From positions 68,882 through 132,881 of the forward strand of contig CAZHDZ010000001.1 of assembly GCA_964531275.1 (NCBI GenBank): 64,000 bases of DNA, read 5' to 3'. A program made the translations under genes and the position numbers. The notes beneath the pieces were generated by a model. It had not been told where the DNA came from. It saw only the letters and a program-made list of their open reading frames with translations, and did no database searches. Of this stretch, positions 11,176 through 26,048 are shown in pieces. Source of the stretch: an uncultured Gammaproteobacteria bacterium (lineage in GTDB: Bacteria; Patescibacteriota; Microgenomatia; Levybacterales; GWA1-39-11). Every line of letters begins with the position of its first letter. Within the stretch, counting starts at the first letter, position 1.

Positions 11176-14100
11176 TTATTCAGGCGGCTGCCATCCTCCG
11201 GATCTTATCTTGGTACTAAATGCTCCAAGCCAGTAGTCTACAAAATTGATAACCCCATTTTTGTCAAAATCCCAAGATGAGTTATAGACCTTTTGTTGGT
11301 ATGTGATCATATCAAAAACTGAATACCAACTAAGTGGTGGATCAACAATACCAACCTTAGTTGTGCAATCAATTATTCCAGTGTAGGTAGGCCCATTCTT
11401 TTTATCTATTGCTGATGGATTGTACCAATTTGTTATTCTCCAATATACGGTTTTTCCGCAGTTACTTTCGTAAAACACATAACCTGTTGTAAGACTGACA
11501 AATCCTACGTACTTATTGGTAATTTGTCTTAGGGCTGCGTAGCTTTGGTTAAGCGGTGCGTCTTGGGAATAGGCACTTGGAATACCAAAGGAGTTGCTTT
11601 GTTGTGTGTAGTCTCCCGAAAAGTCAGACTTTAAAGATATTTGCATATTCCATCCAGCACCACTTGGCGCAAATCCCGGATGATCGAAGAAGAATACTGC
11701 ATAGTTCTTGAAGAACTTTGTTTGATCGATCTTGTATCCCGGTACTATAGTGTCGTAGTTTATTGGTGGTGTTGTTGGATATGAAGTAGGCGTTGGTGTG
11801 GGTGTTGGAGTTCTGGTTGGGGTTGGAGATGGTGTAGGTGGATTTGTTGGACTTGCTTGCGCTATTCGAACTATTCCATTTGCCGGATTTTCAACAGTTG
11901 TTTGTCCCTGCTTTGCTACCCAGAATTGATACGGATAGTCCTGCGCAAGGAGTCCACTTTGTGGAAGAGAGATTGTTATTGGAATGCTTTTTGTTGCTCC
12001 GGCAGCCAAGGTGAAGCTTGGAGGTACTCCGGCAAGACCCCAGCCCGATGGATATCCATAACTTATTGTGTAGAAAGTAGGGGCACATGTCGGTGTGTTG
12101 TTGTTCTGGATCAAAAGGGTGTTGGAAAGTGTTGCACCAGGTGTCGCTAAAATTATTGGTTGAGAAAGCGTAACTGTCTGCATCGTATCGCAATTGGCAG
12201 CAACGGTTGGCGTTGGAGATATTGTAGAACCTGGAAGTAACACTCGAGTAGTACCATTTACAATTATCGGATCAACAGAAGGTTGTCCTGATGTTGAAAT
12301 CCAGAACTGATAATTATAATCTTGTGCAAGAAGCCCATCAGATGGAAGATAAAGTGTATAGTCGATAATATCTGTAATGCTCGGTAACAATGCACGATAC
12401 ATACCTCTTTGTAAGAGGCCCCATCCGGTGGGAATGCTATAACTCACTGTATAAAAAACAGGACCACATGTAGGAGAAGCATTACTTTTTATTGTCATCT
12501 TACTTTTAATCTTTGTTCCTGGTAAACCCAAAGTTAAAGGCTCGGACAACGTGACAGTTGGTTGTGTTATACATTCGGCAGGTATAGTTGGTGGTGGAGT
12601 AATAGTTGGTGGTGCTCCTGTTACTCTGACGATAGCGTTCAGCCAACCGACCGCTTTTACCCACCAACTAGTATATTCTGAGGATAAATAGGTACCTGCC
12701 GAAAAGTTTGCAACGTAATCTTTATTGGAAAGTCCTACTGAAGGTACATGGATTGTATATGCAAGCTCTTTCGTCTCTCCCGTGCCTAATAGAAATGGAC
12801 CTGAAGGTCCAAATCGACCAGTAGGTCCAGTAACTAACCATGTATCTGGATTTATGTTACCGGGATAAGTATAATTTATTATATATTCAATCGGTTTGCA
12901 AACACCTGTATTATTGTTCTTAAGAACAACCGTAGTTGTAACCTTTGACCCAGGGGTTGCAAGAATCGGGGCGTTATCTTTTAGCGAGATGGTGTGTTGC
13001 TGTGAGCAATTAGGATAAGCTGGGGTGGGAGTTGGCCAAGGAGTCTGAGTGAAATTACTACTACAACCCACCTGAGTATATACTGGTATCGAATTTCCTA
13101 TATAATCTTGACAATAATTTGATGTTTTATCAGACGGTGACAAAATAAAAGATCCATAACAATAAAGCTTTTCACCCTCATAACATATATTACCTAGTGA
13201 AGTGCCTAGTCTGGATACCTTTGTAACTAAATGGTGGTAAGAATCGACTGCATACCCATAAGCAGGATCAGAAGAAATAAGGATATCCCGAGGGGTTGGG
13301 GTGGGAGTCTGAGGCATAGGTGTTGGGGTGGGAGTCTGAGGCATAGGTGTTGGGGTTTGTGTTGGACTTGGAAATACGGTTGGCGTAATTCCTCCTTGAG
13401 GAAGCAAATTAGGAGTTCCCAGTCCTGTAGGGCCATCATAGCCTACACCTGCCATGCATTTGAGCATTCCACCACAGCTTCCATTTGAGCCAATATTTAC
13501 ATCTCTAAATTTATCCTGTTGGGTATATGGGAAAGCAGAACCATCAGTTCCTGATGGTATGCCTCCCTGAAGAGCAATGACTGCTGCATATAGTGGAGAG
13601 GATAGACTAGTGCCTCCAATTATCTTCCATCCTGATCTTCCAAAGCCATTTCCCGAATCATAGACAGCAGCTCCCGTATAGGGACTTGCAACAGCCGAAA
13701 CATCGGAAACTGATTTTTTCGTGCCACATCCAACCGCAGACCAGTTAGGGAGTGAAGTTTGGTAAGTTCCTGCAAGTCGTGTTGCAGAACATCCACTCCC
13801 TGCCCCATTCCATGTTTTCTCACTTGCATATGTATTGTCGGGGAAGAGCGACAATTCTGTTCCTCCTACACCTATAACTTTGGAGTGAGAAGCAGGGAAG
13901 ATTGTTCCGTACCCCCAATCCCCCGATGAAGCTGTAACTGCTATTCCGGGATGGTCGTAGAAAGACTCATATTGAGCATATGAAGGGTACTCATAGTTGC
14001 CATAACTATTGGAAATTACTGTGGCGCCCATTTGTGCCGCTCTGCTTGTTGCAGCCCCTAAATTAGTAAAATAATTATCCTCTGCTTCTACGAGCAATAT

Positions 14101-15225
14101 TTTGCATGTTTGGCATATAGCATGTGCAATTTGTACATCCATTGCTGCTTCTACTGCCCAGGTTGAGTCACGTCCTGAAGGTAGCGGACTCGTTTGGCCG
14201 TTTTGGTTAACAATGGTTAGGCATCCATTTGCTTTAGTGCATGGTGGAAGACCAAATGTTTGAGAGTAAACGGCAAGATCTGCTTCGATGGTTGGGCTAT
14301 GGAATGCAAGTATTACTGCTACTGTTTTTGGTCCAAAGGTTGTGGGAGTATCACATTGCCAATCAATGGTGTTGGCCCCAGGCGTGCAAGGCAAATTGTA
14401 TGCTTTGTGCATTTTTTCAGGTGAAAGTCCGTTTGGAGTAGCGAGGGTCGTGAGTGGAGTACCTTTGGAATCAGTTACGAGATCTGACATGCAGGATGCA
14501 GCCCCATCTTGAGGGTCGCTGCAGACGCTTATTGAAGGACGTTCAACAATTGGCATGGGTTCTTCGGGATTATTTGAGGTCGCGGACGCAAGGTCTGCAT
14601 TGGGGCTCATGATCTCAAAACATTCTTGAGCTTCATTTTTAGTGAAGTCACATATGTAGCAATTGTCGTCCCCGGGACAAGAAGGATTTTTTGCGCCATT
14701 CCTTCCATATATAGCCCTTGGATCACTTTTAAATGTAGACGACTTTGGTTTGTAGCAAAGTGCTACTGACCCACTGCATTCAGTCATGAAAATATCTTTT
14801 GCTTCACTTGAATTGACTGCTTTATTTTGAAGATCTCCACCTTTTGTTAACTCTTGGACACAAGAGGGCATTTGGCTCACTGTATCTTTAGTTGCAAGCT
14901 CATTTCTGCACGAAGAATTATCTGTCCAAGGAGTTTTCTTCTCTGTTGCATAATAATATTTTGTAGCGGATGCTAAATCTTTTGTTACCTGCTGGGCTGC
15001 AACATCTTGGGTTTTGTTAAATGATTCAAGGGGATTAATTGCTATAAGAACTATAGCAAACATAACTGCGAGAATACCCAGTACAATCAAAAGCTCAACC
15101 AAAGTAAAGCCGGTCCTCACTTTTTTCAAAAGCTTAGATCCATTTTGCCCTTTTTGCAAAAGGGTGAATCCTTTGGCAATCTTGTGCCTAATTTTATGAC
15201 GAATAACTTCTATATTTAAAAGCAT
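11176..15225 (-). CDS. type IV pilin-like (class III signal peptide) N-terminus fused to an S53 (sedolisin-family) serine peptidase, three CARDB-like repeat domains, Pro/Thr linkers and a C-terminal dockerin/EF-hand-like motif
   Basis: N-terminal prepilin motif KKVRTG/FTLVELLIVLGILAVMFAIVLIAI. The sedolisin Glu/Asp block is ...WAVEAAMDVQIAHAI. The active-site Asp region is ASSGDWG and the catalytic Ser motif is GGTSLSSPLYAAVIAL. There are PTPTPMPQTPTPTP linkers and three about 115-aa repeats, each starting C…T(V/I)(T/S)L…ATPG… and carrying the conserved motif LLAQDY(N/P)YQFW. The C-terminus carries DFDKNGVINFVDY. Confidence 0.75.
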   Translation of the reverse strand: MLLNIEVIRHKIRHKIAKGFTLLQKGQNGSKLLKKVRTGFTLVELLIVLGILAVMFAIVLIAINPLESFNKTQDVAAQQVTKDLASATKYYYATEKKTPWTDNSSCRNELATKDTVSQMPSCVQELTKGGDLQNKAVNSSEAKDIFMTECSGSVALCYKPKSSTFKSDPRAIYGRNGAKNPSCPGDDNCYICDFTKNEAQECFEIMSPNADLASATSNNPEEPMPIVERPSISVCSDPQDGAASCMSDLVTDSKGTPLTTLATPNGLSPEKMHKAYNLPCTPGANTIDWQCDTPTTFGPKTVAVILAFHSPTIEADLAVYSQTFGLPPCTKANGCLTIVNQNGQTSPLPSGRDSTWAVEAAMDVQIAHAICQTCKILLVEAEDNYFTNLGAATSRAAQMGATVISNSYGNYEYPSYAQYESFYDHPGIAVTASSGDWGYGTIFPASHSKVIGVGGTELSLFPDNTYASEKTWNGAGSGCSATRLAGTYQTSLPNWSAVGCGTKKSVSDVSAVASPYTGAAVYDSGNGFGRSGWKIIGGTSLSSPLYAAVIALQGGIPSGTDGSAFPYTQQDKFRDVNIGSNGSCGGMLKCMAGVGYDGPTGLGTPNLLPQGGITPTVFPSPTQTPTPMPQTPTPTPMPQTPTPTPRDILISSDPAYGYAVDSYHHLVTKVSRLGTSLGNICYEGEKLYCYGSFILSPSDKTSNYCQDYIGNSIPVYTQVGCSSNFTQTPWPTPTPAYPNCSQQHTISLKDNAPILATPGSKVTTTVVLKNNNTGVCKPIEYIINYTYPGNINPDTWLVTGPTGRFGPSGPFLLGTGETKELAYTIHVPSVGLSNKDYVANFSAGTYLSSEYTSWWVKAVGWLNAIVRVTGAPPTITPPPTIPAECITQPTVTLSEPLTLGLPGTKIKSKMTIKSNASPTCGPVFYTVSYSIPTGWGLLQRGMYRALLPSITDIIDYTLYLPSDGLLAQDYNYQFWISTSGQPSVDPIIVNGTTRVLLPGSTISPTPTVAANCDTMQTVTLSQPIILATPGATLSNTLLIQNNNTPTCAPTFYTISYGYPSGWGLAGVPPSFTLAAGATKSIPITISLPQSGLLAQDYPYQFWVAKQGQTTVENPANGIVRIAQASPTNPPTPSPTPTRTPTPTPTPTSYPTTPPINYDTIVPGYKIDQTKFFKNYAVFFFDHPGFAPSGAGWNMQISLKSDFSGDYTQQSNSFGIPSAYSQDAPLNQSYAALRQITNKYVGFVSLTTGYVFYESNCGKTVYWRITNWYNPSAIDKKNGPTYTGIIDCTTKVGIVDPPLSWYSVFDMITYQQKVYNSSWDFDKNGVINFVDYWLGAFSTKIRSGGWQPPE
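13296..13360. repeat. 27-bp tandem direct repeat (about 2.5 copies) inside the pilin-peptidase gene, encoding PTPTPMPQT linker units
   Basis: gttggggtgggagtctgaggcataggt appears twice back-to-back followed by a partial third copy; in frame. Confidence 0.7.
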
Positions 15226-16487: not shown

Positions 16488-18890
16488 ATGGCAAACGATT
16501 ACGATAATTACAACGAAAAAATGATACCGGTAATTCCAATAAGGGATGGTATCGTTTTTCCCCACACAGAATCTATCCTAACCTTTGGGCGACCACGAAG
16601 CTTAGCCGCTCTTGAATCTGCTTTTTCGGGTGAGAGGGTCGTTTGTTTTGTGCTCCAAAAGAATCCCCGTCAAGAAGATCCAGATGTATCAGACCTATAC
16701 CAGATGGGTACGGTTGCTCACATTGAGAGAATGATCAGATCTGATGGTGAGGTTAACGCCTTGGTAAGAGGTCTTTCCAGAGCTCAAATCGTGAGCTTTT
16801 CTCAATCGACTCAATACATGCAAGCTGTAGTTCATGAAATAGATGATTTTGAAGCTGATAATCCTGAGTTGAGGGCTCTTATGAATCATTTGACTGCTTC
16901 ATTTAAGAAAGCGTTAAGCCTTGGAAAGCAGGCAGACTTTTTAGTCTTTATGAATATCATGTCGGATATTTCTGCCTCAGAACTTGCTGATCAAATTGCT
17001 TCAACATTAGACATAAAAGGATCTGAAAGACAAGAAATTCTTGAGACAGTGAATGTCAAAAAAAGACTTGAAAAGGTTAGCGAATATTTAGACAAAGAAG
17101 TAAAAGTTCTTGAATTAGAGCGAAAAATTGCCTCAAAAACTCAGGAGCAACTCGAAAAATCGACAAAAGACGCAATTCTAAGAGAAAGACTTAAAACAAT
17201 CGAAAAGGAATTGGGTGAAACAGAAGATGGAGGAGAAATAAAGGAGCTTTCAGATAAGATCAAAAAGGCGGGAATGCCAAAAGATATTGAAGAAAAAATG
17301 ATGAAGGAGCTTAAAAAGCTTCAACAGCTTACTCCTTATAATCCAGAATCAGGATACCTGAGAAATTATCTTGAATGGATGGTTTCGATTCCTTGGAGTA
17401 AAAAAACCGAAAGCAAGATTGATATAAAAAGTGCTGAAAAAATTCTAGACGAAGGGCACTATGGACTCCAAAAGGTTAAAGAAAGGGTCATTGAGTACTT
17501 GGCCGTACATAAACTGTCCGGAAAAATGAAGGGTCCAATTCTTTGTTTTGCCGGGCCTCCAGGTGTAGGTAAGACATCTATTGGAAAAAGTATCGCAAAG
17601 TCTTTGGGACGAGAATTTGTAAAAGTATCGCTTGGTGGTATCCGAGACGAAGCTGAAATTAGAGGACATAGAAGAACATACGTTGGCGCACTTCCTGGGA
17701 GAATTATTCAGGGAATTAAAGATTCAGGTACTAAGAATCCAGTATTTATGTTGGATGAAATCGATAAGGTTGGAGCTGATTTTAGAGGGGACCCCTCATC
17801 TGCGCTCCTTGAGGCTTTGGATCCAGAGCAGAATGGCGGATTTTCAGATCATTATCTTGAAGTTCCTTTTGACCTTTCTGATGTTATGTTTATAACAACA
17901 GCAAATAGGCTTGACACTATTCCTCCGGCCTTAAGAGATAGACTTGAAATCATTACTTTCGCAGGGTATACACAGGATGAGAAATTCCATATCGCAAAAG
18001 ACTTTCTAGTTAAAAAGCAACTTGCAATGCACGGGTTGAAAGCATCTCAGGCAAAAATTTCAGACGCAGCCCTTTCTCATGTAATTAATAGGTATACACG
18101 AGAAGCTGGAGTAAGGAATTTGGAAAGACAAATAGCAACCATTGATAGAAAAATTGCTAGAAAAGTTGCTGAAGGTCAGAAGGAAAAGATTGTTGTTACC
18201 GATAAGACCGTTACAAAATTCTTAGGTCCTGAGAAATACTCATCGACCATTGCTGAGCGTAAAAATGAGGTTGGAATTGCTACTGGGCTTGCTTGGACTG
18301 AGGTTGGCGGAGACATACTTTTCATTGAAGTAGCACTTATGCCAGGAAAAGGTCAACTGATAATCACGGGTCAGTTGGGAGACGTCATGAAAGAATCATG
18401 TCAGGCTGCGATGACTTATGTCAGAGCAAGAGCAAAGAAATTTGGACTTTCAGAAGATTTTTACAAGACACTGGATATACATATCCATGTTCCTGAAGGT
18501 GCTGTGCCTAAGGATGGTCCTTCTGCGGGGGACACCATAACAACAGCCTTAGTTTCTGCTTTGACAAAGATTCCAACAAATCACTTAGTTGGTATGACCG
18601 GAGAAGTAACTATCAGAGGAAAAATACTAGAAATTGGAGGAGTGAAGGAGAAGGTTATTGCAGCGCATAGAGCTGGTCTTAGGACAATTATTATGCCTAA
18701 GGAGAACAGAAAAGATCTTGAAGAAATTCCAAAGGAGGTCGCAAAAGACATCAGATTTGTCTTTGTATCTCACATGGACGAAGTATTAAAAGTAGCGCTA
18801 ACAAAACCCTTGCAGGGATTTAAAGAAATAAAGGGAGAGAAAGAAAAGAAGCACAATCTAACAGCCCCTACCCCAACCCTTGCTGACTAG
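16488..18890 (+). CDS. lon: ATP-dependent Lon protease (LonA)
   Basis: N-terminal LON domain, Walker A GPPGVGKTS, Walker B VFMLDEIDK, proteolytic Ser motif DGPSAGDT and catalytic Lys region GGVKEKVIAAHRAG; 800 aa. Confidence 0.95.
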   Translation: MANDYDNYNEKMIPVIPIRDGIVFPHTESILTFGRPRSLAALESAFSGERVVCFVLQKNPRQEDPDVSDLYQMGTVAHIERMIRSDGEVNALVRGLSRAQIVSFSQSTQYMQAVVHEIDDFEADNPELRALMNHLTASFKKALSLGKQADFLVFMNIMSDISASELADQIASTLDIKGSERQEILETVNVKKRLEKVSEYLDKEVKVLELERKIASKTQEQLEKSTKDAILRERLKTIEKELGETEDGGEIKELSDKIKKAGMPKDIEEKMMKELKKLQQLTPYNPESGYLRNYLEWMVSIPWSKKTESKIDIKSAEKILDEGHYGLQKVKERVIEYLAVHKLSGKMKGPILCFAGPPGVGKTSIGKSIAKSLGREFVKVSLGGIRDEAEIRGHRRTYVGALPGRIIQGIKDSGTKNPVFMLDEIDKVGADFRGDPSSALLEALDPEQNGGFSDHYLEVPFDLSDVMFITTANRLDTIPPALRDRLEIITFAGYTQDEKFHIAKDFLVKKQLAMHGLKASQAKISDAALSHVINRYTREAGVRNLERQIATIDRKIARKVAEGQKEKIVVTDKTVTKFLGPEKYSSTIAERKNEVGIATGLAWTEVGGDILFIEVALMPGKGQLIITGQLGDVMKESCQAAMTYVRARAKKFGLSEDFYKTLDIHIHVPEGAVPKDGPSAGDTITTALVSALTKIPTNHLVGMTGEVTIRGKILEIGGVKEKVIAAHRAGLRTIIMPKENRKDLEEIPKEVAKDIRFVFVSHMDEVLKVALTKPLQGFKEIKGEKEKKHNLTAPTPTLAD

Positions 18891-22363: not shown

Positions 22364-23053
22364 ATGAATAAAGAAATTTCGTTAGCAAATAAAAACATGG
22401 TTGTTGTTGGGGCATCAAGCGGATTGGGATACGAGGTTGCAAGACAACTATCTTCCGAAGGTAGCAATGTGTTTGCTTTATCACGCAAAATTGAAGACCA
22501 ACAATTAGGTTTTACGGCAACAAGAATAAATTGTAATTTAAGAAAACCTGAAGAAATTGTCGAAGCCTTTGAAAGGATTGATAAAGCTGGGGATCTTGAT
22601 GCCCTAATTAACTGTGCAGGTATTGGTCTTACTAAGGACTTTGATTCTACAACACATGAGGAGATTATGGACGTCTTAGGAACCAATTTGAAAGGCTCTA
22701 TATACACAAGCCTAGAGGCATATAAGCGTATGAAAGTTCTTAAGGCAGGGCACATAGTGAATGTTTCATCGACCTCAGGGCTAGTAGGGCGAGACAATGA
22801 AGCGGTATACGCTGCAAGTAAATGGGGCCTCAGGGGTTTTACCGAGAGCCTGAGGCTTGAAGGGGTGAAGAATAAAGTAAGAGTTACCAGTGTCTGTCCA
22901 GGTGGTATGAATTCTGCTTTTTGGAGTGATTTTCCGGATAAAGATTTATCTGCATATATGAATCCAGAAGATGTAGCAGGTCAAATCGTTCATGTACTTA
23001 AATCTCCCAGTGGCATTTCTCCAGCTGAAATAGTTATACAGAGGGGAGTCTGA
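22364..23053 (+). CDS. short-chain dehydrogenase/reductase (SDR) family oxidoreductase
   Basis: Cofactor motif VVVGASSGLGYEVA (TGxxxGxG-type), NAG-like NCAG, catalytic YAASK. Confidence 0.8.
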   Translation: MNKEISLANKNMVVVGASSGLGYEVARQLSSEGSNVFALSRKIEDQQLGFTATRINCNLRKPEEIVEAFERIDKAGDLDALINCAGIGLTKDFDSTTHEEIMDVLGTNLKGSIYTSLEAYKRMKVLKAGHIVNVSSTSGLVGRDNEAVYAASKWGLRGFTESLRLEGVKNKVRVTSVCPGGMNSAFWSDFPDKDLSAYMNPEDVAGQIVHVLKSPSGISPAEIVIQRGV

Positions 23054-24038
23054 GGTTTGTAATAATATTTGTAATTAACATTTCTTTTAAAGATTCAGTA
23101 ATTGTGACGATTACTGCTCCCTCATTCTTTAGTCCATAGATAACTATTGATTCTAGAGGTGCAAAAAGCATTGCGGGGAGTGCGAGTAGATCTTCCTCTC
23201 CATGAATTTCAAGTGAGAATTTGTTATGAGTATTAATACTTTCTTGGATAAAATTTTCAATTTTAAGTGCTGTTGTGCAGTTAATGGTGCCGGGCTCATT
23301 TTCTAATTCTACTGAATTTTTCGGAAGACTTGTAAGAATATGACTGTCTGTTATTTTCTTTCTATTTGATATTTTGTCAAAAATACTGAGATTTGGAATT
23401 AAATCATGTTGCAGTAAATTCGAAACAACAATATCTCCAACCGCGATCGTAAATTTGTTTTGCAAATTCTTAATGTCCATGGTCTTTACAGTCTCTCCGA
23501 AAGGCTCTTTGAGTTGTTCTCTTAAAGAATTAGGGAGAGTAAGTGACGTGTTTTTTGGAAAAAAGTCAGAGTACATATTCCCTCTTCGATCAATTTGCCC
23601 TAGTCTAATTGCGGTTGAGGAGATTCTTTTATTCCTATTGATATCTATAGTTGGTACATCCACAATCTCAAGTTCTTTCAGTCCCAGGCTTTGCCGCTTT
23701 TCATTTACTTTTTTAGCACCACCGTAAGTATCTGAAATAACATATATTGCCTCCAAAGAATTGTCACTAACACTTGGTCCGTAGATATCATCAATTTTAA
23801 AGATTGTAGTTCTTTCGGAATATCCCTTTTGTGATAAAAAGTCTTTGATGGATTGTTCTCTTTTTGCGTAAGGTTCAATTGCGCTTTGCCGTGGTTTGTC
23901 TTGAAGCATTTCATCGGAAGTAATTCCTATAGTGAGTTTTGCTGACTCTAAAAGCGCGGCGTTAATGAAATTTTCATGTCCTTTATGGAAATGATCAAAT
24001 GTGCCACCTAGAACAGAATGATTATATTTGTAATACAT
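23034..24038 (-). CDS. archaeal/eukaryotic-type phosphopantetheine adenylyltransferase (PPAT) fused to a C-terminal about 180-aa domain (possibly DUF359-like dephospho-CoA kinase)
   Basis: N-term VLGGTFDHFHKGH, IGITSDEM, LEAIYVISDTYGGA…LEIVDVPTI align with the archaeal PPAT (COG1019) pattern; C-terminal domain has VGDIVV and GEEDLLALP blocks. Confidence 0.6.
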   Translation of the reverse strand: MYYKYNHSVLGGTFDHFHKGHENFINAALLESAKLTIGITSDEMLQDKPRQSAIEPYAKREQSIKDFLSQKGYSERTTIFKIDDIYGPSVSDNSLEAIYVISDTYGGAKKVNEKRQSLGLKELEIVDVPTIDINRNKRISSTAIRLGQIDRRGNMYSDFFPKNTSLTLPNSLREQLKEPFGETVKTMDIKNLQNKFTIAVGDIVVSNLLQHDLIPNLSIFDKISNRKKITDSHILTSLPKNSVELENEPGTINCTTALKIENFIQESINTHNKFSLEIHGEEDLLALPAMLFAPLESIVIYGLKNEGAVIVTITESLKEMLITNIITNLRLPSV

Positions 24039-24084
24039 AGAGTAAATTTTATTGTATTTTTAGCGTAAAGCAAAGTTGAATAGA

Positions 24085-24121
24085 GGCGTCGCCCCGGAAG
24101 TGAGACTTCCGAGGAGACGCC
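24085..24121 (-). terminator. GC-rich hairpin terminator immediately downstream of the FabG-like gene
   Basis: GGCGTCGCCCCGGAAGT-GAG-ACTTCCGAGGAGACGCC, 17-bp stem with 2 mismatches, followed on the minus strand by a moderately U-rich tract. Confidence 0.45.
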
Positions 24122-24137
24122 AAGAGAACCACTGGGA

Positions 24138-24911
24138 CTAGCCCATGAACAGGCCGCCATCCGCACCGAACACCTTGCCGGTGATGTAGGAAGCGCCAGG
24201 GCCTGCAAGGAAAGCAACGACTGGTGCCACATCCTCGGGCTCACCGAGTTTGTCGGCAGCCCGCCTGTCGCGGACGAGCGGAATATGGCTGTTGACGGTT
24301 TGGGTCGCATCATCAGGCATTTCCGCAATGATGTCCGTCCGGATGAATCCGGGTGAGACTGCGTTGACGGTGATGTTGTTGCGGCCAAGTTCCTTAGCGA
24401 GAGCGAGGGTCATGCCGATCATGCCAGCCTTGGAAGCCGCGTAGTTAACCTGCCCCAGGTTGCCCATTTGGCCGACAACGCTTGTGATATTGATGACACG
24501 GCCATGCTTGGCTTTCTGCAGCGGCCTAACGGCCGCTTTGACCATCAAGAACGCCCCTCGAAGGTTAGTGTTGTGGACAGCATCCCAATCTTCGAGGGTC
24601 ATCCGAAGGAGGGGCCCATCACGGGTTATTCCTGCGTTATTGACGAGGATGTTGAGGCCGCCATATCGTGCGGTGACTGCATCGACGAGGTTTTCGGCAT
24701 CAGCCTGTATGGAGACGTCGCCTCTGATGGCAAACGCTTCGCCTCCCATGTTGATGATTTGTGCGACGACCCCATTTGCAGCGGTCTCGCTTGTGTTGTA
24801 GTTCACCCCGACCTTTGCTCCCTGAGAAGCGAGTTCGCGGCAAATTGCTGCGCCGATCCCTTTTGACCCTCCGGTCACAAGGGCGACTAGGCCGTCTAAC
24901 GGTCCGGACAA
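24138..24911 (-). CDS. fabG: 3-oxoacyl-[ACP] reductase (FabG)-type SDR, encoded in a high-GC island
   Basis: [11 protein letters not shown] cofactor motif, NNAG, catalytic NYAASKAG and PGFIRTD; about 63% GC versus about 35-40% flanks; TTG start with GGAGA RBS. Confidence 0.85.
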
Positions 24912-25169
24912 TAGAAATCTCCAGTAGTGTGTCTGCTAATTTGCGCGATGCGCAAAAACCCTGTATCCTCCTTTCGTTTTTCCTACAGTGGTTGCAGCTT
25001 TTTAAAGACAATAGATGTATCCCCAAAAAGCCGCAACCAAATAATTTCCAGTGGTTTGTTAATGTACAAAGCGTGATAGATCCAAGCAAAAGGATCATCT
25101 AACTTCATAGTGGAGAATTATACAGTATTTAGGTACAAAATGAGAAATAATGCGTGATACAATCAAGTA

Positions 25170-26048
25170 ATGAAAAGTACAGAAGGGCATATACAAGTTA
25201 AAGGCGGAAAGATTTGGTATAAGGTCTTTCTCAGTGAAAAGAATACAACTCCTCTCATGGTCTTGCATGGTGGACCTGGATCCTCTTCTCATTCAATGCA
25301 GACTTTAAGTGAATTCTCAAAAGATAGGACTGTGGTTTTTTATGACCAGCTAGGATCGGGTCATTCTGATAGACCGCAAGATACAAAATTGTGGAAGAAA
25401 GAACGATTTGTTGAAGAGCTAGAGACGCTGCGAAAGCATTTAGGATTTGAGGAGGTATATCTATGGGGACAATCATGGGGGACAATGCTTGCAGTAATGT
25501 ATACATTAAAATTTCCAGAAAGAGTAAAAAGCATTCTTTTTTCAGGACCTTTCTTTAGTAGCAAGAGATGGATCGAGGACGCAAATAAACTCAAGGAGAC
25601 TTTGCCAAAAAAAGTTGTAGAGGTAATTGATAGGAATGAAAAAAATAAAACTTATGACTCGAAAGACTATGAGAGAGCAACTTTAGAATTTTATAAGAAA
25701 TATTTTTGCCGAATTTATCCATATCCAAAACCACTGCAGGAAGGGCAGAAGCTTATGGGGCTTGATGTCTATAACACAATGTGGGGATCGACAGAATTTC
25801 ATTGTACAGGTAATCTAAAAGATGCGGATTATATAGATCGTCTGCATGAGATAAATATCCCTGTATTTCTGATTTGTGGGAAATACGATATGGCAACACC
25901 ATCAACAACAAAATTTTACACAGACAAATTCCCTAATGCAAAAATGAAAATTCTAGATAAAAGTGCACACGCAATGTTCCTTGAAGAGAAAGAATTATTT
26001 CTGAAAAGTGGTATGGAATTTTTTAAAGAAGTAGATCAAAAGATCTAA
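25170..26048 (+). CDS. alpha/beta hydrolase, proline iminopeptidase-like (S33)
   Basis: HGGPGSSS oxyanion motif, GQSWGT nucleophile elbow, C-terminal D and H (SAHAMF). Confidence 0.7.
   Translation: MKSTEGHIQVKGGKIWYKVFLSEKNTTPLMVLHGGPGSSSHSMQTLSEFSKDRTVVFYDQLGSGHSDRPQDTKLWKKERFVEELETLRKHLGFEEVYLWGQSWGTMLAVMYTLKFPERVKSILFSGPFFSSKRWIEDANKLKETLPKKVVEVIDRNEKNKTYDSKDYERATLEFYKKYFCRIYPYPKPLQEGQKLMGLDVYNTMWGSTEFHCTGNLKDADYIDRLHEINIPVFLICGKYDMATPSTTKFYTDKFPNAKMKILDKSAHAMFLEEKELFLKSGMEFFKEVDQKI

Follow-up and report, generated by a model that had tools for sequence, protein, structure and literature searches.

A remodelled fabG-type gene of Chloroflexota origin inserted in a Levybacteria-like genome of the Candidate Phyla Radiation

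Candidate Phyla Radiation bacteria (CPR, Patescibacteria) generally lack fatty-acid synthesis (PMC9938205) and are considered to obtain their lipids from other cells. Partial fab gene sets of unclear role have been reported from them: Minisyncoccus archaeiphilus has AccC, FabK, FabG, and a FabA-like protein, and groundwater CPR bacteria have fabG and fabZ (PMC12281837, PMC11608272). Here we describe a case from a 64-kb stretch of contig CAZHDZ010000001.1 (positions 68,882 to 132,881; this whole stretch is hereafter called the window, and coordinates refer to it unless another contig is named), in which a GC-rich island carries one fabG-derived gene of the classical short-chain dehydrogenase/reductase (SDR) family. 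We consider it probable that the island represents an old insertion of a Chloroflexota fabG into a Levybacteria-like CPR genome, where the gene was kept by selection and remodelled, and this reading explains the locus best as a whole. The data document the insertion, the clade of the donor, the age, the selection, and the altered residues, from which the substrate, the structure of the transcript, and the course of amelioration are inferred. Events of this kind, in which a horizontally acquired islet carries a FabG-like SDR paralogue, are already known, as are horizontal transfer into CPR and FabG paralogues without contacts to the acyl carrier protein (ACP), and the established picture is unchanged. 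The present case combines a defined insertion site, a Chloroflexota donor, which might hint at an ecological partner, long-term purifying selection, and a precise change in ACP docking. It offers the testable hypothesis that an enzyme of type II fatty-acid synthesis (FAS-II), recruited by a host that lacks this pathway, was re-tooled to work independently of ACP.

The island protein shares with canonical FabG (model TIGR01830; Escherichia coli FabG and Synechococcus FabG, structure 4DML) the SDR fold, the TGxxxGIG motif with a basic residue, the NNAG motif, and the Ser-Tyr-Lys residues, and is 44% identical to E. coli FabG and 60-63% identical to FabG of Chloroflexota. It differs from FabG in the replacements of R172 by Asn and of R15 by Lys, in a basic 7-residue insertion in the lid, and in a model score under the cutoff; furthermore, no fab genes adjoin it, and the host clade is generally without FAS-II. 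Enterococcus faecalis FabG2 and FabG3 and Xanthomonas campestris FabG2 are likewise named FabG, are encoded outside the fab operon, and lack one or both of R129 and R172 (PMC13293336). In contrast to these paralogues, the island protein has lost R172 alone and stays basic at position 129, and it stems from inter-phylum transfer of an operon-type fabG, not from duplication within a genome. Like the partial fab sets of CPR, the island presents a FabG-type gene without a full fatty-acid pathway, whereas its foreign origin, insertion site, age, and loss of an ACP contact are documented.

According to the amelioration model of Lawrence and Ochman, a foreign gene is said to relax towards the composition of its host, fastest at third codon positions. 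The GC content at third codon positions (GC3) of the island indeed lies between the values of the donor clade and the host. Compared with that model, the island is unusually clean (1,035 bp, one gene, empty sites, and a 5-bp repeat), and the expected excess of GC-to-AT changes is not shown. Phage morons and integron cassettes resemble the island in being single genes of deviant composition with a promoter-like site and a 3' stem-loop. We rejected a phage moron because the surroundings are not those of a prophage and searches of phages and viruses gave no match, and an integron cassette on reading the sequence of the hairpin, which does not have properly ordered R'' and R' core sites of attC, and on finding no integrase among the neighbours. 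The sole RYYYAAC-like heptamer (ATTCAAC) stands after the hairpin and not before it, and no matching R' (GTTRRRY) is present.

Insertion, donor, and age of the island

On the reverse strand, the open reading frame (ORF) with its length and TTG start and its SDR motifs including PGFIRTD, as well as the overlapping spurious ORFs at 24008..25102, were all found as a preliminary description of this DNA had given them. The GC content is 0.580 in the ORF at 24138..24911, 0.70 in the hairpin at 24085..24121, 0.574 over 24080..24960, and 0.369 in the remaining window. When 774-bp sliding windows were examined, those outside the island had a maximum GC of 0.48 with a standard deviation of 0.030, so that the fabG ORF lies about 7 standard deviations out and forms the sole peak of that size in 64 kb. 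The GC3 of fabG is 0.655 against 0.300 +/- 0.027 for 35 native ORFs (z = 13), and its codon-usage score has a z of -9.8 relative to 30 native genes. Hence, fabG clearly deviates from the native genes in both composition and codon usage, as is looked for in a horizontally acquired islet. FabG homologues do not stand out in this way elsewhere: in 132 of them from other genomes, each with more than 3 kb of flank, the GC of the gene minus that of the flank was +0.022 +/- 0.025 (maximum 0.116), compared with +0.21 for the island gene. The outlying GC content claimed in the preliminary description is therefore real, but the ORF has 58% and not 60-65% GC. Its claim of sharp boundaries on both sides applies to the 3' edge, at 24084/24085. 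On the 5' side, the GC content drops at the start codon, yet this is not the edge, as the inserted DNA extends by another 210 bp or so, up to 25119, with a GC content near 40%.

Exact and near-exact look-ups of the protein yielded five related contigs with further copies of the island. A Logan contig (L001) encodes the identical protein and matches the window at 100% of nucleotides over 3,683 bp, and an ENA scaffold from another sample (L002) also encodes the identical protein, with 99% nucleotide identity. Contigs from two further runs (L003, L004) encode a 91%-identical protein (86% at the nucleotide level), and an NCBI metagenome contig (L005) encodes a 75%-identical one (76-77%). In every case, the GC content of fabG is 55-62%, and that of the DNA on both sides is about 30-40%. 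When GTDB representative genomes and JGI metagenome contigs were scanned with the island protein, nothing above 62% identity was obtained.

The locus without the island was found by using the flanking gene for a fusion of phosphopantetheine adenylyltransferase (PPAT) and dephospho-CoA kinase (DPCK) as the query. The 20.6-kb contig obtained (L086) has the gene order of the window, Lon-GH1-HAD-regulator-SDR-PPAT-DPCK on one side and hydrolase-Gly_transporter on the other, and fabG is absent. The two divergent start codons are 68 bp apart in L086 and 1,131 bp apart in the window, and the spacer in an assembly from another run (L089) is identical to the 68 bp of L086. L086 aligns with the window up to 25158 and again from 24076, with only about 18 bp between the two blocks. 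Syntenic relatives thus have an empty site, which reads ...GATTATACG TCTAT TTAGC... with a single TCTAT. L003 reads ...GATTATACC TCTAT (1,035 bp) TCTAT TTATC..., and its insert is equal in length to that of the window, where the junction repeats are TCTAT at 24080..24084 and TGTAT, with one mismatch, at 25120-25124.

Because both junctions recur in independent datasets and two independent empty sites exist, the island is a real insertion and, as the preliminary description had argued, not a mis-joined contig. An assembly chimera, in which a contaminating read bridge would have joined a Chloroflexota fragment into a CPR contig, has nothing in its favour beyond the composition itself and, as far as sequence comparison goes, can practically be dismissed: the junctions recur across runs and assemblers at 100%, 99%, 86%, and 76-77% identity, the island copies have diverged together with their AT-rich flanks, and the junction structure agrees base for base with the empty sites. 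Searches of the ORF list, of domains, and of tRNAs revealed no integrase, transposase, or tRNA near the site. Since a 5-bp TCTAT repeat (exact in L003, one mismatch in the window) marks the junctions and a mobility gene is lacking, we infer that the 1,035-bp segment 24085..25119 entered the spacer of about 68 bp between two divergent, apparently leaderless native genes by illegitimate recombination, which may have been microhomology-mediated or have followed a staggered break.

The homologues of PPAT-DPCK and of the Lon protein (gene at 16488-18890 on the forward strand) are named Ca. Levybacteria, Levyibacteriota, or Woesebacteria, in accord with the CPR-like host assumed in the preliminary description. 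The island protein has different relatives. Beyond the island copies, the best 120 protein matches listed are 59-63% identical, and every named one among these 120 belongs to Chloroflexota (Dehalococcoidia, Tepidiformaceae, Ca. Amarobacter). Among GTDB representatives, the best match is a metagenome-assembled genome of Chloroflexi at 60%, and the next phyla reach at most 53%. In a bootstrapped neighbour-joining tree of 47 FabGs, the three island copies formed a clade with 100% support, which was sister to a Chloroflexota clade with a joint support of 93%. The gene tree is accordingly at odds with the host phylogeny, with a Chloroflexota sister on the one hand and Levybacteria-like markers on the other. 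Taken together, the 93% bootstrap support and the empty sites uphold the acquisition of a single gene from a high-GC donor, and the protein search places that donor in Chloroflexota. In the nearest Chloroflexota loci, the fabG genes stand in fab clusters, with fabD immediately upstream (L090) and acpP downstream (L006), and have a GC3 of 0.83-0.89. We propose that the coding part would originally have been the canonical FAS-II fabG of a high-GC Chloroflexota donor of the Dehalococcoidia/Tepidiformaceae type. When the leader and the hairpin were compared with 157 FabG loci by tblastx and blastn-short, neither a decayed 3' end of the donor fabD in the leader nor donor DNA in the hairpin was found at a significant level. 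As for a vehicle, the leader had no exact match in viral contigs and none in phages, and plasmids gave generic partial matches to the fabG core.

The island is old and under strong purifying selection. Between the window and L003, fabG has a nonsynonymous divergence (dN) of 0.043 and a synonymous divergence (dS) of 0.55, and between the window and L005, these values are 0.167 and 1.28; dN/dS is 0.08-0.13. The low dN/dS, at a dS of 0.55-1.3 among the copies, means that the gene is functional and that the insertion preceded substantial divergence. The GC3 values of the three copies are 0.655, 0.64, and 0.61, compared with the 0.83-0.89 of the nearest Chloroflexota and 0.30 in the host. The island has been kept in at least three diverged lineages, and its GC3 has probably ameliorated partway, with a drift of third-position GC from about 0.85-0.89 towards the 0.30 of the host.

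The encoded protein and its likely function

With TIGR01830, the protein scored 287.7 bits, just under the equivalog cutoff of 297.75, and the other FabG equivalog models also remained below their cutoffs. The broader subfamily model NF009466 gave 245 bits, above its cutoff of 222, and the Pfam matches to PF13561 (adh_short_C2, 204 bits) and PF00106 (adh_short, 198 bits), above the gathering scores, identify a classical SDR. All top matches in the PDB were FabG, the best being that of Synechococcus (4DML) at 233 bits. An AlphaFold model had a predicted local distance difference test score (pLDDT) of 81 and a predicted template modelling score of 0.85 and showed the alternating beta/alpha pattern.

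The catalytic residues N86, N110, S138, Y151, and K155 (E. coli numbering) and the NNAG motif are kept in the three copies. The glycine motif TGGSKGIG is of a predicted NADP(H) type, in which Lys replaces R15, a residue that is Arg in 16/16 sequences of the sister clade. Among 47 columns conserved in at least 43 of the 44 other FabGs, a single one is changed in all three island copies, namely Arg172, which is Arg in 44/44 of the others and Asn (N178) in the island. R129 and R172 are the ACP-docking residues of FabG (PMC8007833, PMC13293336), and the island proteins do not have both; the position of R129 is K, R, and K in the three copies and stays basic. Furthermore, a basic insertion of seven residues, VRDRRAA (residues 213-219; pLDDT below 50 in the model), follows the lid helices and is absent from the 44 other FabGs. 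Enterococcus FabG paralogues without R129/R172 do not act as ketoacyl-ACP reductases (PMC13293336).

A tblastn search with the E. coli proteins did not find fabH, fabD, acpP, fabF, or plsX in the 64-kb window or in the contigs L086, L087, L088, L089, and L005. The association with other FAS-II genes is thus missing from the window and the syntenic contigs, in contrast to the donor-type genes in their fab clusters. The preliminary description had considered a lone FAS-II reductase odd in such a genome. The gene is indeed alone within the window and its syntenic relatives, but partial fab sets had already been reported in CPR.

These features suggest how the enzyme may have changed. After the transfer, it would have been remodelled such that the SDR catalytic and NADP(H) apparatus was kept, Arg172 was lost, and the basic lid insertion was gained. 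The product would most probably be an NADPH-dependent reductase of 3-oxoacyl or related carbonyl groups on CoA thioesters or other ACP-independent substrates, and it could serve in the processing of scavenged acyl chains instead of de novo fatty-acid synthesis. Judging from the residues, the enzyme is probably no longer a canonical ACP-dependent FabG. On the basis of the residues and the genomic context, we propose with moderate confidence that a fabG of the operon type was acquired and later adapted to a substrate that is independent of ACP.

Alternative readings

Several observations weigh against an old insertion that was inherited, partly ameliorated, and re-tooled. The junction repeat is only 5 bp long, with a mismatch in the left copy of the window, and the transcript start and the roles of the leader and the hairpin, described below, are proposed from sequence features. 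Regarding the history of GC3, we used a two-state non-stationary likelihood model on 180 synonymous sites of three taxa. With the equilibrium set at the host value of 0.30, this model yields a root GC3 of 0.89, as in the donor clade. However, a stationary GC3 of about 0.65 fits about 2 log-likelihood units better than decay towards 0.30, and the equilibrium of 0.30 is rejected (twice the log-likelihood difference, 7.0) against a free model that is itself weakly identified and takes absurd parameters (root 0.27, equilibrium 1.0); decay towards 0.30 and stationarity at 0.65 are not confidently separable by the model. Parsimony counts 23 GC-to-AT and 22 AT-to-GC changes, without any excess, although these counts are judged unreliable with a nearly saturated outgroup. 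Furthermore, the GC contents at first and second codon positions are at most slightly elevated for the observed GC3 (z of 1.2-1.8 and about 0, respectively, in a regression over FabG homologues). The high synonymous GC might then be actively maintained, by selection on codons or mRNA structure or by biased repair or conversion, with the island at an equilibrium of its own. This would agree with the better fit of the stationary model, with the near-equal GC3 in three lineages despite a dS of up to 1.3, with the 23 and 22 changes where about 4:1 is expected under the host bias, and with a dS of fabG below that of native genes, though AT-biased mutation should hit a GC-rich gene harder. On the other hand, the data comprise three taxa and 180 sites, the near-saturated outgroup pushes the parsimony counts towards composition, the free model that rejects 0.30 is the weakly identified one, decay from 0.89 yields the GC3 of the donor clade without any special force, and the lower dS is explicable by later recombinational spread of the island. 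We regard maintained GC as unlikely but as an alternative worth keeping, and start from partial amelioration as the default. Far less credible is the reading of the preliminary description, in which a single gene arrived recently from a donor with a GC content of about 58% and has stayed essentially unameliorated. The compositional edge is sharp at the 3' end, the GC contents at first and second positions are roughly as expected for a FabG with a GC3 of 0.65, and some Dehalococcoidia fabG genes are alike in composition (L009, GC3 0.63). Against these stand the presence of the island in lineages whose copies are separated by a dS of 0.55 and about 1.3, the identity of only 60-63% to the closest donor-type proteins (52% to L009), GC3 values of 0.61-0.66 against 0.83-0.89 in the donor clade, a long island stem with the derived R172N, R15K, and 7-residue insertion, and a leader at 41% GC; we consider this reading to be very improbable, and neither a recent nor an unameliorated acquisition is supported.

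The history of the island is not simply vertical, because the flank of L003 resembles that of an island-free relative, the dS of fabG is below that of the backbone, and L002 is a mosaic. The 5' end of the PPAT gene in L003 (L003:1112-1180) is identical at 66/69 positions to the island-free L086 (8028-8096) and at 57/69 to the window. The dS of 0.55 between the fabG genes of the window and L003 is lower than that of native genes when the window is compared with L086, where it ranges from at least 1.2 to saturation; Lon of the window and L086 has 97% protein identity and 55% identity at third positions. In L002 (L002:1-990, corresponding to window 24066-25051), the coding sequence (CDS) has 1/774 mismatch to the window, but its hairpin and the flank beyond follow L003, from which one base in the hairpin loop differs over the overlap. 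This points to a recombination event, with its breakpoint close to the stop codon of fabG, among lineages that carry the island. Read by eye, the flank at L089:135-203 is also near-identical to that of L003, a sign of presence/absence polymorphism among close relatives. These data, together with the lack of the island in the locus relatives L087, L171, L172, and L174, would fit a cassette that became locally mobile after its capture, either by recombinational spread via the flanks or by precise excision at TCTAT, with a patchy distribution as the result. We consider such mobility possible though less likely than not, and it is compatible with our explanation of an old, selected insertion from Chloroflexota. 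Its weak sides are that the flank evidence from L003 covers about 100 nt on short contigs, that the intergenic DNA on the right-hand side of the repeat has a 14-nt indel and several substitutions between L003 and L086, unlike a very recent precise excision, and that no recombinase or transposase accompanies the island. With respect to function, the enzyme might still act as a canonical FabG that depends on ACP and completes, or adds to, a FAS-II pathway whose genes lie in another part of the genome. The 64 kb cover part of the genome, and acpP and other fab genes may lie outside them; partial fab sets in CPR are on record, every top match is a FabG, the residues for catalysis and for the cofactor have been kept, as has a basic residue at position 129, an Arg directly precedes N178 and could still contact ACP, and Xanthomonas FabG2 is active without R129/R172 (PMC13293336). 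Nevertheless, the sole change at the 47 near-invariant positions affects R172 and is shared by every copy of the island, the lid insertion and the score under the TIGR01830 cutoff set the protein apart, no other FAS-II genes were found in the window and related contigs, and CPR in general lack fatty-acid synthesis. A canonical role is hence unlikely.

In L005, the most divergent of the contigs with the island, the hydrolase gene is cut to a C-terminal remnant of 32 codons that abuts the island (L005:150-300), with fabG intact, and the gene after the hairpin (L005:1360-2445) encodes a membrane protein 61% identical to one that precedes PPAT in L171; L005 is the same neighbourhood on a different backbone. 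The Levybacteria-like contigs L171, L172, and L174, which were reached via Lon, have rearranged loci and gave no additional empty or occupied sites.

Expression signals, stem-loop, and neighbouring features

We examined 30 native gene starts spanning 2.8-63.5 kb (e.g. 28949, 34443, 40575, 50520, 51863, and 56689). GGAG or GAGG was found within 21 nt upstream in 0/30, and a TAnAAT -10 box, often as TGnTAnAAT, ended 5-10 nt before the ATG in 14/30, compared with 5% of control ATGs (p = 4e-11). The position of these boxes, 5-10 nt before the ATG, indicates that the native mRNAs would be mostly leaderless. The preliminary description had noted a ribosome-binding site of local style upstream of fabG. 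A GGAGA does stand there, and GGAGA/GGAGAG with the TTG start is kept in L003 and L005, but it cannot be called local-style when none of the native starts has such a motif.

At the other end of the insert, the extended -10 element TGTATAAT (25117-25124) spans the junction, its TAT belonging to the repeat and its AAT being the first bases of the insert. The junction TATAAT is kept in the window, L003, and L005, with an architecture as in the native leaderless promoters. Transcription would start at this native-style element created by the insertion, pass through a conserved leader of about 190 nt, and reach the Shine-Dalgarno sequence and TTG, which are foreign-type signals in a leaderless host. 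It would end at the stable stem-loop, which has no U-tract, just upstream of the PPAT-DPCK promoter.

The leader, placed at about 190 nt between the -10 region and GGAGA/TTG, contains a core that is the most unusual part of the locus. This core includes a long hairpin at 24989-25039, AAGGAGG at 24967-24973, and the near-perfect palindrome TTTTGCGC-ATC-GCGCAAA at 24940-24957. Between the window and L005, it is 90% identical, whereas the CDS is 73% identical and its third positions are 49% identical (Fisher p = 4e-18), and a run of 44 nt is free of substitutions in three lineages. A 43-codon ORF (MKLDDPFAWIYHALYINKPLEIIWLRLFGDTSIVFKKLQPL) begins in the leader of the window, and the same ATGAAG opens 4 codons in L003 and 2 codons in L005. 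Since the ORF lengths vary in this way by lineage, the mini-ORF is probably not a conserved protein and may be a leaderless upstream ORF; the variable lengths and the conservation of the core, including the unchanged run, place the constraint at the nucleotide level and not on a peptide. A consensus fold of the core has three hairpins, for which three near-identical sequences permit no covariation. The best Rfam 15 matches of the leader reached 10-18 bits against gathering scores of 35-90, and when the island and the whole window were scanned with Rfam, a single tRNA and nothing else was detected. Searches for similarity to the core found none in the donor loci or elsewhere in the window, and none in plasmids, phages, or viral contigs. 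It could be speculated that the leader is an undescribed cis-acting RNA, riboswitch-like or a translation adaptor, which together with the maintained GC-rich synonymous sites forms a co-adapted expression module. We think this quite unlikely; if true, the leader would let a foreign gene that depends on a Shine-Dalgarno sequence and starts with TTG be expressed or regulated in a leaderless CPR host. The locus also provides two natural tests: whether, and at what rate, imported GC-rich DNA ameliorates within a reduced genome that is AT-rich, and how a foreign Shine-Dalgarno-dependent gene is expressed in a genome of leaderless mRNAs. The unexplained leader, the amelioration question, and the patchy distribution are of moderate residual interest.

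The stem-loop 3' of fabG has a minimum free energy of -33.4 kcal/mol in an 86-nt context (z = -4.1). All of its 17 base pairs recur in the predicted folds of four copies, where one pair has changed from U-A to C-G in a fully compensatory way. The preliminary description had taken it for the gene's own terminator. A stable and conserved stem-loop is present, but the downstream UCUAUUCAACUUUGC holds no U-tract, and a terminator scan did not call it; it is possibly a U-tract-less terminator, an insulator, or a stabiliser of the mRNA 3' end. In the nearest Chloroflexota loci, fabG is not followed by such a hairpin, because its stop codon already overlaps with the gene behind it. The hairpin of the island holds the 11-mer GAGACTTCCGA, within 24097-24115 and on the strand opposite to that of fabG. 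This 11-mer recurs in L006 and L091, both among the nearest Chloroflexota loci, on the sense strand of the gene after fabG and about 60 nt downstream of fabG. By a rough estimate, the chance of such sharing is a few in a thousand, and it may be coincidental or left over from inverted donor DNA.

The perfect 9-nt inverted repeat AACCACTGG/CCAGTGGTT flanks the CDS at 24127-24135 and 25048-25056 (also 24986-24993), with its arms in conserved sequence. We discarded it as a signal, as an equally long pair occurs inside the CDS by chance and the repeat, taken by itself, is not significant. Other short direct and inverted repeats inside the island had lengths and identities typical of chance.

The features of the locus are listed in Table 1. 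The PPAT-DPCK gene gave 144.5 with NF001985 (NCBIfam; cutoff 104) and matched Pfam PF01467 and PF04019, with a GC3 of 0.28. It encodes an archaeal-type enzyme in a bacterial (CPR) genome, and sequences of the Levybacteria- and Woesebacteria-like type widely carry the fusion. The 3' end of this gene overlaps a convergent native SDR gene (22364-23053) by 20 bp. The hydrolase on the other side scored 291.5 with TIGR01250 (cutoff 167.65), has a GC3 of 0.31, and is 79.5% identical in amino acids to its orthologue in L086. The extra bases at 25126-25157 on the hydrolase side could stem from a local duplication or be the scar of a recombination event.

Table 1 Features of the fabG island and its flanks (window coordinates)
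Feature	Position	Strand	Remarks
Native PPAT (CoaD)-DUF359/GTP-dependent dephospho-CoA kinase fusion	23034..24038	-	Flanking gene; co-oriented with and downstream of fabG
PPAT-proximal TCTAT junction repeat copy	24080..24084		ATAGA on + strand; native DNA just outside the insert
Whole inserted segment	24085..25119	-	1,035 bp: leader, fabG, and stem-loop; basis: L086 alignment and L003/L086/L089 junctions
GC-rich 17-bp stem-loop 3' of fabG	24085..24121	-	Last bases of the insert
fabG-derived classical SDR gene	24138..24911	-	257 amino acids; TTG start; GC 0.58; GC3 0.655
Shine-Dalgarno-like GGAGA	24918..24922	-	6 nt upstream of the TTG start
Conserved non-coding leader core	24929..25071	-	143 nt; GC 0.41
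Mini-ORF, leaderless-type	24977..25108	-	43 codons; ATG 8 nt after the -10 box
Promoter-like site TTCTCA-18 nt-TATAAT	25117..25146	-	Scan: 10/12 matches
About 30 extra bases, hydrolase side	25126..25157		Missing in L003, L086, and L089; similar to the L005 spacer
Native proline iminopeptidase-family alpha/beta hydrolase	25170..26048	+	Flanking gene; divergent from fabG

Apart from the island, the second GC-richest stretch of the window (up to 0.49; GC at second codon positions 0.50) is an ORF of 1,349 amino acids at 11176-15225 on the reverse strand, which carries a methylation motif of the prepilin type at its N-terminus and matched no other domain. Relatives of this ORF with the same motif adjoin Lon in L172.

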